Origin: an uncultured Chloroflexia bacterium
Lineage (GTDB): Bacteria; Chloroflexota; Limnocylindria; Limnocylindrales; CSP1-4
DNA length: 64,000 nt
Direction of reading: 5' to 3'
Assembly: GCA_963715295.1 (NCBI GenBank)
Contig: CAVQRP010000009.1
Location: forward strand, 13,189-77,188
Position 1 is the first letter of the stretch; each line of letters starts with the position of its first letter. A model generated the notes under the pieces. It had not been told where the DNA came from and made no database searches. It saw only the letters and a list, made by a program, of their open reading frames with translations. The translations under genes and the position numbers were made by a program. This document shows, piece after piece, positions 29,515-55,372 of the stretch.

Positions 29515-30113
29515 ATGGCAACTGCGATCACGCCCGCACAGGTCAAGGACCTTCGCGACCGCACCGGAGCGGGCTTCATGGACTGCAAGAAGGCGCTCGA
29601 GGAGACCGGAGGTGACCTGGAGGCCGCCATCGAGTTCCTCAAGGAGAAGGGTCAGGCCAAGGCTGCGGGCAAGGCCGGGCGCGAGGCTCGCGAGGGCCAG
29701 GTTTCGTCCTACATCCACGCGGGCGGTCGGCTGGGTGTGCTCATCGAGGTCAACAGCGAGACGGACTTCGTGGCGCGCAACGAGGACTTCCAGAAGCTGG
29801 TCAAGGACATCGCCATGCAGGTCGCGGGCCTGGCGCCGAAGTACGTCACCATCGAGTCGATCCCGGCCGCCGACCTGGAGGCCAAGAAGGCCGAGCTGAT
29901 GGCCGATGAGGCGACGCAGCAGAAGCCCGAGGATATCCGCGGCAAGATCGTGGAGGGCCAGCTCAACAAGTGGTACAAGGACGTGGTGCTCTACGAGCAG
30001 CCGTTCCGTGACTCGGACCTCACCGTGGGCCAGCTCGTCACCGAGGCGGTCGCACGCATCGGCGAGAATATCCGCGTCCGCCGCTTCGTCCGCTACGAGC
30101 TCGGGGAAGCGCT

Positions 30114-30117
<4 letters not shown>
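29515..30117 (+). CDS. tsf: Elongation factor Ts (short form)
   Basis: [39 protein letters not shown]. Confidence 0.97.
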
Positions 30118-31439
<1,322 letters not shown>

Positions 31440-42569: not shown

Positions 42570-43085
42570 GTGAGCGAGCGCAGCCGGCGCGTCGATCATC
42601 TCCTGCAGGAAGAGATCAGCGCCATCGTTCAGCGTGAGGTGCACGACCCAAGGGTCGGCTTCGTCACCATCACCAGTGTCGAGACCACGCCTGACCTGCG
42701 CCATGCCACGGTGTGGGCTTCGGTCATCGGCGACGCAGCCCAGCGCAAGGCCAGCCTCGAGGCGCTTGGTCGCGCCATGCCCTTCGTGCGCCATCAGCTG
42801 GGTGGCCTGCGCCTGCGGCGCGTCCCGGACCTGCACCTTCGCGAAGACGACAGCGCCCAGCGAGGCACCCGTGTGATGCAGCTGCTGGAGCGTGTCGAGG
42901 CGGAGTTCGAGGGCACGGGCGCTCATGTCGACGAGCCCGTGGCCGATATCGCCGATTTGCCCACGCCGTCGTCGCTCAACGACCCCGCTGATGGGGATGT
43001 CGACGATGATCCGTTGCCGGCCGGCTACCGACGCCGCGTGGACCGCGTGTCTTTGCGCAAAGCCAGGCAGCGCCGTGGTCGCTGA
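42570..43085 (+). CDS. rbfA: Ribosome-binding factor A
   Basis: RRVDHLLQEEIS, DPRVGFVTIT, PDLRHA, LRRVPDL; extended C-terminal tail. Confidence 0.94.
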   Translation: MSERSRRVDHLLQEEISAIVQREVHDPRVGFVTITSVETTPDLRHATVWASVIGDAAQRKASLEALGRAMPFVRHQLGGLRLRRVPDLHLREDDSAQRGTRVMQLLERVEAEFEGTGAHVDEPVADIADLPTPSSLNDPADGDVDDDPLPAGYRRRVDRVSLRKARQRRGR

Positions 43086-44112
43086 CGGCATGCATTCGCT
43101 GCTGCAGTCCGACCTCGACGCGGTGCCGGTGGAGGTGCCCGAACGCCTGCTGCAGGGCAAGCGAGTCATGACCGTCTGCCACGAGAACCCCGACGCCGAT
43201 GCGCTCGGTTCAGCCCTGGGCGTGGCCCTCGCGCTGGAGACGCTCGGGGCACGGGTGAACGCCGTCTGCTCCGATCCGGTGCCCGACATGTACGACTTCA
43301 TGCCCCAGGTCGAGCGGTTCCGTCGATCGCCCGAGCCGGACCTGGACCCCGACCTCATCGTGGTCTGTGACTGTGGTGATCTCGAGCGCACCGGCAGCGT
43401 GCTCCGCGAGCAGGCTGGACTGTTCGAGCGGGTACCCATCGTCAACCTCGATCACCACGTCTCCAACACCGGCTTCGGCACGACCGACTGGGTCGACGCA
43501 ACGGCCGCGGCCACGTGCGAGGAGGTGACCCTGCTGCTGCCGCATCTCGGTGTCGCCTTCGATGCGCTCGGCGGCGACATCGTCCAGAACCTGACCGCGG
43601 GCCTGGTCTTCGACACGGCCAACTTCGCACACTCCAACACCACGCCGCGCACACTGCGCGTGGCGTCCGAGCTGGTCGCCGCGGGAGCCGAGCTGCCCAT
43701 GATCGCGCGGCGCATCTACCGCACCAAGCCCAACCCGCAGCTGAAGCTGTTCGGTCTCGTGCTGGCCCGCCTTGAATCGTCGGCCGACGGCCGCCTCACC
43801 TGGTCGGTCGTCAGCGACCAGGACTACGAGCGCGCCGGTGCCAGCCAGCAGATGTCCGAGGGACTCATCGACCTGCTGGCGCAGTCGGCCACTGCCGAGG
43901 TAGCCATCCTCTTCAAGGACCTCGGCGACGAGGTACGCCTTTCGGTCCGGACGCGCGATGACGGTGTCGACGCGACCACGCTGACGGGTGCATTCGGTGG
44001 CGGCGGGCACGCTCGTGCCGCCGGGGCCACCTTCGCGGGTGATCTCGCAGCCGCTCGGCCGGCGGTGCTCGACCAGGCCCAGCGGCTGCTGGACGAGATG
44101 CCCGCTCGCTGA
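43075..44112 (+). CDS. nrnA: DHH/DHHA1 phosphoesterase (NrnA-like oligoribonuclease / pAp phosphatase)
   Basis: HENPDADALGS, NLDHH, DTANF, GGGGHARAAG. Start GTG 43075 or ATG 43090. Confidence 0.88.
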   Translation: MVADGMHSLLQSDLDAVPVEVPERLLQGKRVMTVCHENPDADALGSALGVALALETLGARVNAVCSDPVPDMYDFMPQVERFRRSPEPDLDPDLIVVCDCGDLERTGSVLREQAGLFERVPIVNLDHHVSNTGFGTTDWVDATAAATCEEVTLLLPHLGVAFDALGGDIVQNLTAGLVFDTANFAHSNTTPRTLRVASELVAAGAELPMIARRIYRTKPNPQLKLFGLVLARLESSADGRLTWSVVSDQDYERAGASQQMSEGLIDLLAQSATAEVAILFKDLGDEVRLSVRTRDDGVDATTLTGAFGGGGHARAAGATFAGDLAAARPAVLDQAQRLLDEMPAR

Positions 44113-46564: not shown

Positions 46565-46691
46565 GGCGGGATGGCCTCGGCGGGCGCTGCCCGCACTCGC
46601 TACCACATCGCATGCGCCAAGGAGACCTCAGGTGAGGTCTGCGCAGTAGCACCCAACGTGCCCGGTCCGTCGGTCGTCCCCTGGAGGACAG

Positions 46692-49297
46692 ATGACGGTA
46701 ACCACCCTGACCGACCGAGTTCGGCGGTCGCACCATCACCATCGAGACGGGCAAGCTCGCTCGCCTGGCTGGTGGCTCCGTGACCGTGCAGTACGGCGAC
46801 ACCGTGCTGCTCGGCACGGCCAATCGAGCCGAACCGCGACCGGGTCTCGACTTCTTCCCGCTCACGATCGACTTCGAGGAGCGGATGTACGCCGCGGGCA
46901 AGATCCCCGGCGGTTTCATCAAGCGTGAGGCGCGCCCGTCGGAGGCAGCCATCCTCGCTGCCCGCCTGACCGACCGTCCTATCCGCCCGCTCTTCCCCGA
47001 GGGCTACAAGGACGACGTGCAGTGCGTGCTGACGGTGCTCTCGACCGATCAGGAGAACAACCCCGACATCATCGGCACGATCGCCGCCTCGGCCGCGCTG
47101 ACCATCAGCGAGATCCCGTTCCTGGGCCCGGTCGCCGCCGTGCGCATCGGCCGCATCGACGGCAAGTTCGTGGTCAACCCGATCGCCAGCCAGATGGAGG
47201 AATCGGAGCTCGACCTCATCGTCAGCGGCACCAAGGACGCCATCATGATGGTCGAGGCGGGCGCCAAGATCCTGCCCGAGTCCGTCATGGCCGATGCCAT
47301 CATGTTCGGTCACGCGCAGCATCCAGCCGGTCATCGAGCTGCAGGAGCGGCTCCAGGCTGAGGTCGGCAAGGCCAAGCAGCATCCCCTACGTCGAGCCGG
47401 GTGTCAGCTCCGTCGTGGACTTCGTCGAGGCCGTCTCGGCGGGCGAGTCGTTCGTCGTCTTCGACACCGAGACCACCAGCAAGGACGCGCGCACCGGCGA
47501 GCTCGTCGAGATCGGCGCCGTCCGCCTGAGCGGCGGCAAGGTGACCGATACGTTCGAGACGCTCGTCAAGCCCACCCGCGGCATCGTCGGCAAGCAGATC
47601 CACGGCATCACCAACGCCGACGTGGCCAACGCGCCCCAAGCCCGGCGGAAGCGGCGGCGCAAGCTGCTCGATTTCGCCGGCGACGACATCCTCGTCGGCC
47701 ACAACGTCGGCTTCGACATCAGCTTCGTCGAGGCTGCGCTGGCCGACGGTACACGCATCGAGCCGGGCACGTACCTCGACACGCTCGTGCTCGCGCGTGG
47801 TGGCTACCCCGACCTCGACGCTCACAAGCTGGCCGACCTGGTCGAGTTCTTCGAGCTCTCCGTCGACCCCAAGCACCGTGCGCTTGCCGACGCCGAGGCC
47901 ACCGCAGCGCTGCTGCAGCCGCATGGCCGAGGACCTGCCCGGTCGCGTGGCTGCCTTCAAGGAGGCCGTGGCCGCGTCGGTGCGCATGCGCAAGGGTGGC
48001 GCTGACAGCGACGTCGCTGACGCCGCCTTCGAGGCTGCGCTGGTGGCCTCAGGCATGAGCAAGAGCCTGACCACCTCCTTCACAAGAAGACCGTGCGCGA
48101 GCTGGTCCTCGACGAGGGCATCCGCATCGACGGCCGTGACGTCGACACCATCCGCCCCATCTCGGTCGAGGTCGGACTGCTGCCGCGCGCTCACGGCTCG
48201 GCGCTCTTCACCCGAGGCGAGACCCAGGCGCTGACGGTGGCCACGCTCGGCCCCTCGAGCGACGTCCAGCGCATCGACACCATCAGCCCCGAGGAGTCCA
48301 AGCGCTACCTGCACCACTACAACATGCCGCCCGTACAGCACGGGCGAGAACAAGTTCATGCGCGGTCCCGGCCGGCGTGAGATCGGCCACGGTGCGCTCG
48401 CCGAGCGGGCGCTGGTACCGGTCCTGCCCGACGCAGGAGGAGTTCCCCTACGTCATCCGCCTCGTGAGCGAGTGCGTCACCTCCAACGGCTCGACCTCGA
48501 TGGCCTCCACCTGCGGCTCGACGCTGGCGCTCATGGACGCCGGCGTGCCCATCAAGGCCCCGGTCGCGGGCGCCGCCATGGGCCTGGTCACCGACGGCGA
48601 GCGCTTCGCCGTCCTCACCGACATCCTCGGCAAGGAAGACTTCTTCGGTGACATGGACTTCAAGGTCACCGGCACCGCTGAAGGCGTCACTGCGCTGCAG
48701 ATGGACATCAAGGTCCAGGGCATCAACGAGGACATCATCCGCCAGGGCCTTGAGAAGGCTCATACGGCACGCCTGTTCATCCTCGACAAGATGACCGAGG
48801 TGCTGCCGACGGCACGAGGCGACGTGAGTAGCTTCGCCCCGCGCATCATCACCATCAAGATCAATCCCGAGAAGATCCGCGACATCATCGGCAAGGGTGG
48901 CGCCACGATCCGCAAGATCCAGGAAGAGACCGGCACGGAGATCAACGTCGAGGACGACGGCAGCGTCGAGATCGCGGCCGTCAACTCCGAGCACTCCGCC
49001 AAGGCCGTGCAGTGGATCGAGTCCCTCACCCGCGAGGTGGAGGTCGGCGCGCTGTACCTGGGCAAGGTCACCCGCATCATGGGCTTCGGCTGCTTCGTCG
49101 AGATCCTGCCCGGCAAGGAAGGCCTGGTGCGCATCGGCGAGCTGGCCGACTACCACGTGCCCACCGTCGAGGACGTCGTCCAGGTGGGTGACGAGATCAT
49201 GGTGGTCGTCATCGAGATCGACCGCCAGGGTCGCGTCAACCTCAGCCGAAAGGCCGCCATGCAGCGGCACCTGGCCAAGGATGGTGGGGAGGCCTAG
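46692..49297 (+). CDS. pnp: Polyribonucleotide nucleotidyltransferase (PNPase) with an inserted DEDDh exonuclease domain; broken by at least 7 single-base indels (probable sequencing errors)
   Basis: After frame correction: [33 protein letters not shown] (PH1); [43 protein letters not shown] (PH2); KH IIGKGG; S1 [15 protein letters not shown]. Shifts near 46713, 47314, 47379, 47920, 48075, 48332 and 48429. GGAGG RBS; follows rpsO. Confidence 0.92.
47451..47919 (+). other. DEDDh 3'-5' exonuclease (DnaQ/epsilon-like) domain embedded within pnp
   Basis: Exo[31 protein letters not shown], Exo[29 protein letters not shown], Exo[14 protein letters not shown]. Confidence 0.9.
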
Positions 49298-53688: not shown

Positions 53689-55372
53689 ATGGCCGTGAAG
53701 CGAGCCCCCGCGTCGTCGCGCGAGATCCTGCGCGTCGTGCCCCTCGGCGGCATCGGCGAGATCGGCAAGAACATGACCGTCTTCGAGTTCGCGGACGAGA
53801 TCATCGTCGTCGACTGCGGCCTGATGTTCCCCGAGGAGGAGATGTACGGGATCGACATCGTCATCCCCGATATCGCCTACCTGCGCGAGAAGCGCGAGAA
53901 GGTCAAGGCCTTCGTCATCACCCATGCCCACGAAGACCACGTCGGCGCCTTGCCGTACGTACTGCCCGAGTTCCCGGGTGTGCCGGTCTATGCCTCGACG
54001 CTGGCCCGTGGCCTGCTCAGCAACAAGATCAAGGAGCACAAGCTCCGCAACAACCCGCTGAAGGCGCTAGACCCGGGTGAGAAGGTGGAGCTGGGTCACT
54101 TCGATGTCACCGCCTTCCGTGTCGGCCACTCGATCCCCGATGCCATGGGTCTGCGCATCCAGACGCCATTCGGCGACATCATCCACACCGGCGACTTCAA
54201 GTTCGACCAGACCCCCGTCGACGGGAAACCGGTCGACTTCCAGGACATCGCCCGTTTCGGCGAGGAGGGCGTGCTCTGCCTGATGTCCGATTCGACGCGT
54301 GCGGAGGTGCCCGGTTGGACGCCCTCGGAGCGCACGGTCCTGGACGCGTTCCATGACATCATGGAGGGCCTTTCAGGGCGCGTCATCGTGGCCACCTTCG
54401 CCTCCAACATCGCACGCGTCCAGCAGGTCTTCGATGCGTCCGAGACCTTCGGCCGCAAGGTGGCCGTCATCGGCCGCTCCATGGAGCAGAACACCCGCAT
54501 CGCGGCGGATCTTGGCTACCTTCGATCGCCGAGCACGGGTCTCGTGGCCAAGGGCAAGATCAAGAGCATCCCTGACGACCAGTTGACGATCATGACCACG
54601 GGCTCACAGGGCGAGCCCATGGCCGGCCTGGCGCGCATGGCGAACCAGGACCACCGCTTCGTCGAGATCGGCCCCGGCGACACGGTCATCGTCAGCGCCA
54701 GCCCCATCCCCGGCAACGAAGAGTACGTGGCACGCACCGTCGACAATCTCTTCAAGGCCGGTGCCAACGTCTACTACCACGCCATCAAGCGGGCGCACGT
54801 ATCCGGCCACGCCAGCCAGGAAGAGCTGAAGCTGATGCTCAACCTGACCAAGCCCAAGTACATCATCCCGGTCCACGGCGAGTTCCGGATGCTGGTGCAG
54901 CACGGCCGGCTGGCATCGGACGTCGGCGTCGATGCAGAGAACATCCTCATCCTCGAGAACGGCCAACCCATCGAGTTCCTCGCCGATGGCTCCGCGCGGC
55001 GCGGCGAGAAGGTCGAGGCCGGTTACGTCTACGTCGACGGTGTCTCGGTGGGGGAGGTCGGGCGACATCGTGTTGCGTGACCGCGGTGCTCTCGCGCGCG
55101 ACGGCATGTTCCTGGTCGTGGTCGCGGTCGACAAGCAGAACGGCAAGCTGGTCGGGGCGCCCGAAGTCGTCACCCGCGGCTTCGTCGCCGAGGCCGACCA
55201 GCAGCTGCTGGCCGGCGCGGCCACGCGCATCGCTGCCTCCATCGAACGACCCGGCCAGCACCTGGCCGAGATCGGCCTCCTGAAGGCCCAGATCAAGGAC
55301 GGACTCTCCAACTATCTCTATGAGCAGACACGCCGTCGCCCCCTCGTCTTCCCGGTGATCGTGGAGGTCTAG
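53689..55372 (+). CDS. rnj: Ribonuclease J, with one +1 frameshift near 55061 (probable sequencing error)
   Basis: PLGGIGEIGKNM, THAHEDHVG, HTGDFK, HVSGH, PVHGE. The C-terminus GDIVLRDR…RRPLVFPVIVEV continues in the next frame after an extra G. Confidence 0.94.

Follow-up and report, generated by a model that had tools for sequence, protein, structure and literature searches.

The gene analysed here is pnp, encoding polynucleotide phosphorylase (PNPase), at positions 46692-49297 (+ strand) of a 64,000-nt stretch of contig CAVQRP010000009.1 from an uncultured Chloroflexia bacterium (assembly GCA_963715295.1); this whole stretch is referred to below as the window. In this gene and its relatives, a complete 3'-5' exonuclease domain of the DEDDh (DnaQ-like) type is embedded between the two RNase PH cores, giving the order RNase PH, PH_C, DEDDh exonuclease (PF00929), helices, RNase PH, PH_C, KH and S1. 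On comparative sequence evidence, the PNPase-DEDDh fusion is real and old, and it is conserved across three families of one Chloroflexota class; the same layout recurs in one open frame in more than 100 genomes, a recurrence not attributable to chance. We consider it fairly probable that the gene represents a genuine, vertically inherited PNPase variant, in which a DEDDh domain placed in the helical domain of a chain of ~865 aa adds phosphate-independent RNA decay.

Domain layout and insertion site

The window lies in a genome of 3.0 Mb on 23 contigs, of which the estimated completeness is only 66.5% and in which this is the sole pnp. A gene-wide open frame is absent from the window copy: the gene is split in the assembly into seven frame segments and a 22-nt out-of-frame patch, and the peptide strings quoted by the first-pass annotation, all of which were located, are spread over three frames. 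The window copy was scanned with profiles in pieces, and whole-protein scores were taken from an intact orthologue (protein P0001, locus L002 in genome G010). This orthologue is a single 866-aa chain with the full domain order, close to the ~865 aa that had been predicted.

Using Pfam on the unaltered window pieces, RNase_PH (5.1e-19) and RNase_PH_C (2e-15) were found in window:46780-47361, followed by RNase_T/PF00929 at 7.6e-28 (98.5 bits, cut-off 24) over residues 145-298 of window:47022-48005. Of the next pieces, one was without any Pfam family and RNase_PH was matched at 4.7e-10; the last piece (window:48377-49297) carried RNase_PH, PH_C, KH_1 (5.4e-13) and S1 (4.1e-17). The order is that claimed in the first-pass annotation, which had placed a DEDDh exonuclease between the PH domains of a PNPase.

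All features of the gene lie on the + strand. A Shine-Dalgarno-like GGAGG (46683-46687) was read directly from the sequence 4 nt 5' of the ATG at 46692, where the protein starts with MTVTTLT. The first RNase PH core (RNase_PH and RNase_PH_C) extends over 46692-47377, its C-terminal 15 residues lying at 47333-47377. It is followed by a linker with one helix (47378-47453; AlphaFold2 helix 238-248 in the orthologue), which corresponds in the alignment to the beginning of the alpha-helical domain in ordinary PNPases. The exonuclease domain occupies 47454-47915, with its motifs ExoI (FDTETT, 47460-47477), ExoII (HNVGFD, 47700-47717) and ExoIII (HRALADAEA, 47874-47900). The remnant of the PNPase alpha-helical domain (47916-48092; AlphaFold2 helices 395-430, 437-451 and 455-473) is continuous with the last exonuclease helix. 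The second, catalytic RNase PH core was placed by Pfam at 48093-48766, its first 15 residues at 48093-48137; it contains RREIGHG (48373-48393), SNGSTSMAS (48482-48508) and GDMDFKV (48647-48667), so that the motifs expected there are indeed kept. KH (48848-49021) and S1 (49037-49252) correspond to residues 158-215 and 221-292 of the last piece.

In P0001, the exonuclease was placed by Pfam at residues 254-406 (PF00929, 101.6 bits, cut-off 24), between a linker including a helix (229-253) and a helical segment (407-465), in agreement with earlier estimates of ~25, ~155 and ~60 aa for linker, exonuclease and helical part. The whole protein is recovered as a PNPase equivalog by TIGR03591 (956 bits, cut-off 525.05) and NF008805 (951.3 bits, cut-off 471). 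When compared with solved PNPases, only residues 7-250 and 461-854 align, so that residues 251-460, ~210 including a complete DEDDh domain, replace the ~49 helical residues of 5yjj. The short all-alpha domain of PNPases (PF03726) reached 21.7 bits, below its cut-off of 24.6, and only over residues 456-481. Following alignment with five unfused PNPases, the first and last helices of the alpha-helical domain were found to be kept, with the exonuclease between them. By these alignments, the insertion point is inside the PNPase alpha-helical domain. In all other respects compared, the protein resembles canonical bacterial PNPase (5yjj, 4nbq, 7ogk, 3cdi), sharing the two PH cores, KH, S1, the phosphate-binding and catalytic motifs and the rpsO-pnp context.

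A full-length AlphaFold2 model built from 114 sequences had a mean predicted local distance difference test score (pLDDT) of 84.9 and a predicted template-modelling score (pTM) of 0.78, with the insert blocks at 85-97; the insert modelled alone reached a pLDDT of 90.5 and a pTM of 0.88. In the model, the final exonuclease helix continues directly into a 36-residue helix of the residual bundle, which suggests that the exonuclease is mounted rigidly and not on a flexible tether. Following a Foldseek search with the full-length model, the best solved chains among the matches listed (to rank 50) were all ordinary PNPases (E to 3e-69, targets of 482-730 residues, template-modelling score TMq 0.48-0.62). 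PMC2723993 describes the PNPase helical domain as forming part of the active-site side pore on the ring face opposite KH and S1, the pore being thought to pass phosphate and nucleoside diphosphates and the domain to modulate that access. The placement of the insert in the first-pass annotation, near where products leave the trimer, agrees with this description. For human PNPase, an extract of PMC12685370 reports contacts between the helical domain and the RNA substrate.

Distribution in relatives and indels of the window copy

A match to the exonuclease was obtained in 40/41 relatives, mostly in unbroken frames of 847-970 aa, and 18/22 fused loci gave a single-frame full-length tblastn match. 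Frames were guided by tblastn, as choosing the longest frame was misled by long spurious antisense frames in these high-GC genomes. The frames of the relatives run through the fusion uninterrupted, as expected of a single polypeptide without a separating stop, and no normal pnp of ~700 aa was found in the insert-bearing relatives. In a word-indexed search with the insert region, 272 proteins were recovered at E <= 1e-5; among the matches listed, 120/120 carry both PF00929 and PF01138, and 99/120 measure 858-872 aa. These proteins are named either 'polyribonucleotide nucleotidyltransferase' or 'DNA polymerase III epsilon subunit family exonuclease', and neither database name conveys the fusion. 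The sequences are public and the architecture is undescribed in the literature searched: full-text searches turned up no account of a PNPase that contains an exonuclease, in line with the first-pass annotation. The organism labels are Chloroflexota or Candidatus Limnocylindrales (close matches Limnocylindrales or Limnocylindria) and two others, and the taxon name of the fused clade is that of these source labels alone.

In a draw of 401 genomes across the phylum, the insert was matched over the whole 241-aa query at E <= 6.1e-39 in all sampled members of family f1 (23/23), family f2 (4/4) and family f3 (16/16) and in neither of two members of family f4 (0/2), family f83 not being sampled. Outside f1-f3, no full-length insert match was obtained in this draw, the best match (2.2e-27) covering the exonuclease core only. 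A second sample comprised 151 genomes of the class, each at least 85% complete except the window's own; the insert was found at E <= 1e-30 in 49/49 (f1), 7/7 (f2), 52/55 (f3), 0/38 (f4) and 0/1 (f83). The phylum tallies include the unpublished genomes G381, G310, G212, G184 and G266 and the class insert tallies G478, G487 and G511, without which f3 stands at 49/52; no conclusion hangs on unpublished genomes alone. In five unfused genomes (two from f4 and three from outside the class, including unpublished G381), ordinary pnp frames of 737-787 aa were found, with DEDDh domains elsewhere. Among 1.84 billion cluster representatives, 26,471 proteins matched the insert at E <= 0.001 and 35 at E <= 1e-30; of these 35, P0125 alone (864 aa) is a full-length fused representative, the others measuring 133-654 aa, and most of the short strong representatives look like fragments.

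A tree of exonuclease domains placed the 16 inserts sampled in one clade on a long stem (support 100/99), with inner branching that follows the families. This topology fits one insertion, and the insert thus appears to have had a single origin followed by vertical inheritance.

The window copy differs from this pattern by nine frame-shifting indels spanning 46713-48433. In a MAFFT alignment with L002 (88.5% DNA identity), insertions were placed at 46713, 47317, 47381, 47637 (2 nt), 47659, 47922, 48329 and 48433, and a 1-nt deletion at 48074; an in-frame 3-nt deletion lies at 49282. Eight of the nine are thus insertions, and none of the sites falls in a long homopolymer. The single-base indels assumed in the first-pass annotation were located by this alignment.

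Short-read contigs of four other metagenomes, some of them near-identical to the window (2 other letters in 350 nt for record 3, 2 in 155 nt for record 27), are without the indels where the sites are covered. In these contigs, letters are omitted at 46711/46713, 47317, 47637 and 48430/48432 and a G is added at 48074. The gap counts of records 3, 12, 20-23, 27, 6 and 7 match the sites spanned, with matching gap numbers at 47317 and 47381, 47637 and 47659, 47922, 48074 and 48433; site 48329 lies outside the coverage of the records listed. Since near-identical contigs from four metagenomes are without them, the nine indels are regarded as very probably errors of this assembly and not biology.

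It was also considered that the window pnp might have decayed recently into a true pseudogene, or that the region might be a mis-assembled chimera. Such a state would account for nine indels within 2.6 kb, an unusual pile-up that stands against one frame change each in only 3/38 other reference open reading frames of the window. Moreover, no public run held at least half of the window's sampled words (best 0.21). The indel-free contigs, some with only 2 mismatches in 155-350 nt, speak against decay, as do the stop-free frames used for the window pnp, its status as the only pnp in the genome, and its protein identity to the orthologue, 90-94% in most frame segments (two segments, including the one across the 22-nt patch, are at 67-75%). 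At the DNA level, pnp is closer to G010 (88.5% identity) than are the six blocks of the window that align (74-82%), and collinearity of the window with G010 over 63 kb indicates that pnp is not chimeric. Decay or chimerism was accordingly judged improbable.

The three other reading frames with a change were identified by Pfam on the G010 copies as peptide deformylase, an amino-acid kinase and RNase J. The changes in the peptide deformylase gene (window ~2098-2765, +) and the amino-acid-kinase-family gene (~30066-30879, +), one each relative to G010, are probably further assembly indels. Raw counting of gaps not divisible by three in a blastn comparison of the window with G010 (287/347 gaps) was too noisy at ~80% identity and was discarded in favour of a protein-level frame test. 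Among other relatives, pnp is broken at L003, L004 and L005 (genomes G013, G021 and G005) and carries a compensated out-of-frame patch at L006 (G022); frame breaks in these four further genus-level assemblies suggest that assemblies in the genus are error-prone.

Affinity and predicted activity of the inserted domain

By profile, the insert was matched best by PRK07883-type DEDD exonucleases (5.7e-44), PolC (NF001688, 9.8e-34) and DinG (NF005981, 3.3e-29). The epsilon-family domain TIGR00573 scored 80.8 bits on P0001 (cut-off 71.5) and 68.9 on the window piece. The nearest solved sequences were the PolC exonuclease 2p1j (2.3e-21) and then DinG 8zef. In Foldseek, the insert model, which has a DnaQ-like fold, retrieved Staphylococcus aureus DinG at the top (5.8e-12) with the longest structural alignment (200-203 columns), followed by PolC, a CRISPR-linked DnaQ domain and epsilon (E 5.8e-12 to 1.5e-09, template-modelling score TMt <= 0.81).

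An identity as RNase T or oligoribonuclease (Orn) was ruled out, the best family and structure matches being of DEDD, PolC, DinG and epsilon types. Both are absent among the 25 of 59 NCBIfam families and the 60 of 86 PDB sequences listed; RNase T structures appear first at Foldseek rank 12 (E 1.6e-08), and Orn is absent among the Foldseek chains listed. With RNase T and Orn, the insert shares the superfamily fold and the five catalytic residues. By family, the RNase T-like character that the first-pass annotation had offered as one option was not borne out.

With PolC, the insert shares the same DEDDh sub-type, present there too as an internal insert (positions 412-589 of 1445 in NF001688); the PolC proofreading domain interrupts its PHP domain. 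The hosts differ, being a polymerase in PolC and a phosphorylase here. Exo-DinG (S. aureus 9ii8/8zef, Bacillus subtilis DinG) provides both the best structural match and a strong profile match, and is the only other home of the DEDDh domain found in the class. It differs by its helicase domains, none of which stands beside the PNPase insert. The same DEDDh sub-type was also seen in other Chloroflexota fusions (L044 = G249:C1, L042 and L046), joined to PAS (669 aa) or to GIY-YIG, in some cases with UVR as well (599-702 aa).

The DinG-type helicase domain PF13307 (E <= 1e-5) and the insert have opposite family distributions in the same 151 genomes of the class: PF13307 was found in 1/49 (f1), 0/7 (f2), 1/55 (f3), 38/38 (f4) and 1/1 (f83), tallies which include unpublished G457 and G471 (36/36 for f4 without them). 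The unfused sister family f4 thus keeps Exo-DinG. In the f4 genome G362, the sole PF00929 domain heads an Exo-DinG protein (PF00929, DEAD and Helicase_C_2; L035 = G362:C20), while the fused genomes G010, G292, G025 and G074 gave no PF13307 match, and P0001 is without a helicase domain.

This pattern raises the alternative that the insert is mainly a 3'-5' exonuclease of DNA or RNA:DNA hybrids which replaces a lost Exo-DinG, with PNPase as its scaffold, and which trims DNA ends or removes R-loops. The domain's closest relatives, being DNA-directed exonucleases, its long structural alignment with S. aureus DinG, the complementary distribution and the location of the only PF00929 domain of G362 would all agree with such a role, as would the degradation of single-stranded DNA and of the RNA strand of hybrids by B. 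subtilis DinG, given in excerpts of PMC12525004. The tree, however, does not group the inserts with the DinG exonucleases: those of f4 form a separate clade, and the tree gives no resolution at its deep branches, including those that relate the inserts to DinG-type and GIY-YIG-type exonucleases, so that descent from DinG is not claimed. The complementary distribution may reflect only one or two events, since the relatives are not independent, and the insert is fused to an RNA enzyme in which both RNA-binding domains, KH and S1, are retained. On balance, the replacement of Exo-DinG is thought unlikely, with a DNA or R-loop role nevertheless given real weight in view of what the domain is related to and of Exo-DinG having been lost.

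Whichever the substrate, the residues for catalysis are present. D, E, D, H and D of the DEDDh signature are invariant in 16/16 diverse orthologues and in 15/15 of a further set, confirming the annotated retention of all five positions, although inserts across families are only 34-48% identical. In database proteins of at least 800 aa, the motif patterns were found in 106/106 (ExoI), 106/106 (ExoII) and 105/106 (ExoIII, the exception being P0058). The PNPase motif residues R559, R560, H564, S598, S600, D647, D651, D653 and K655 are likewise invariant in the two alignments (A1 and A2) inspected for them, the Asp residues of the second PH core belonging to the catalytic and phosphate-binding motifs of PNPases. 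Ser, His and Arg bind phosphate in human PNPase, as stated in the extract of PMC12685370. Both catalytic centres are thus kept, as far as sequence conservation can indicate. Over 21 within-genus pairs, the ratio of nonsynonymous to synonymous substitution rates was 0.16-0.38 for the insert versus 0.05-0.19 for the PH cores, from which the insert is considered to be under purifying selection, looser than the PH cores and clearly constrained.

The faster evolution of the insert could alternatively be taken to mean that the exonuclease is catalytically idle and acts instead in structure, RNA binding or regulation, for example by gating the side pore; the helical domain it replaces is the element thought to modulate access of phosphate and nucleoside diphosphates (PMC2723993). 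Invariance of the five metal-binding and general-base residues in such diverged inserts, and of the motifs in 105-106 of 106 database proteins, makes a silent structural role very improbable, as such residues are usually lost from idle domains.

Genomic context, proposed mechanism and significance

Upstream of pnp, a conserved cluster comprises, in order, a DHH/DHHA1 (NrnA-type) gene, truB, ribF and rpsO. The DHH/DHHA1 gene of the window (42892-44112, +; Pfam DHH 3.5e-12, DHHA1 1.3e-09) lies 2.6 kb upstream of pnp. The spacer between rpsO and pnp measures 127 nt (window 46565-46691); in Escherichia coli, an autoregulatory hairpin is known in the pnp leader. An RNase J gene was located at 53689-55369 of the window (+; beta-CASP 2.2e-46, RNase_J_C 8.9e-24, Pfam on the G010 orthologue), with its one frame change in the window assembly near 55060.

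The nuclease complement was surveyed in five genomes of 91-97% completeness, four fused (G010, G292, G025, G074) and one unfused (G362). Neither RNB (RNase II/R; 0/5) nor PF01612 (DEDDy) above cut-off (0/5) was seen in any of them, while RNase PH and RNase J were present in 5/5, RNase J a few kb from pnp in each; an NrnA-type DHH gene lies ~4 kb upstream of pnp in 5/5. PNPase may thus be the only processive 3'-5' exoribonuclease of these five genomes. The sole PF00929 match of each of the genomes G010, G292 and G074 is the pnp insert, which is also the only DEDD-type exonuclease found in them. In G025, from the small-genome family f2, a second PF00929 match (1.4e-15) was seen in a 206-aa frame (G025:C2:301392-301853); it was not picked up by the exonuclease query (tblastn on L052).

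Two stricter roles for the insert were rejected on this complement. As G362 is also without RNB, the insert is not required to offset the absence of RNase II/R, and a strict replacement of these enzymes was ruled out. As NrnA-type genes are present, the insert need not account for the removal of short oligonucleotides; the insert as a necessary replacement of oligoribonuclease was ruled out, and the first-pass suggestion that it finishes off short oligonucleotides is weakened.

In the favoured reading, that of a PNPase variant with added phosphate-independent RNA decay, the usual PNPase trimer would form and carry three hydrolytic exonuclease domains on the ring face opposite KH and S1, each beside the side pore that leads to a phosphorolytic site. 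These domains would hydrolyse single-stranded nucleic acid from 3' ends, adding phosphate-independent 3'-5' decay to an enzyme otherwise needing phosphate, and judging from the retained motifs a single trimer would combine phosphorolytic and hydrolytic activity. RNA is favoured as substrate because the host enzyme, KH and S1 are all RNA-directed; the likeliest targets would be RNA released by the ring or left unfinished by it.

Several observations weigh against this reading. The indel pile-up in the window pnp has been described above. By sequence and fold, the nearest relatives of the insert (PRK07883-type, PolC, DinG) act on DNA, and the excerpts of PMC12525004 report that B. subtilis DinG prefers single-stranded DNA and cuts linear single-stranded RNA only with Mn2+. 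To these are added the absence of RNase II/R from the unfused sister-family genome G362 and the presence of an NrnA-type gene in all five genomes surveyed.

The eukaryotic exosome offers a comparison, combining a PNPase-like RNase PH ring with Rrp6, a hydrolytic 3'-5' exonuclease of the DEDD superfamily. The exosome ring has no catalytic activity of its own and is bound non-covalently by Rrp6 as a separate DEDDy subunit, whereas the fused PNPase keeps its phosphorolytic motifs and carries the DEDDh domain within its own chain, where it would lie on the other ring face from KH and S1. A more speculative extension would be a two-step machine, in which the ring phosphorolyses RNA and the remnant, or any 3' end resistant to the ring, passes via the side pore to the DEDDh site, as a covalent counterpart of exosome plus Rrp6, or else the nuclease head of Exo-DinG moved onto PNPase to act on R-loops and DNA ends; this is put forward only tentatively.

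PNPase is well studied and highly conserved, and its five-domain plan has been treated as fixed. In the clade described here, spanning three families and more than 100 species-level genomes in the samples, the enzyme has gained a second centre with a different predicted chemistry, hydrolysis next to phosphorolysis. The fused protein provides a natural test case for the coupling of a ring-shaped processive nuclease to a distributive one, and a direct handle on the function of the poorly understood helical domain. If the two-step machine is true, a lineage for which none of the five genomes surveyed yielded an RNase II/R would possess a complete 3'-5' decay route that does not depend on phosphate.

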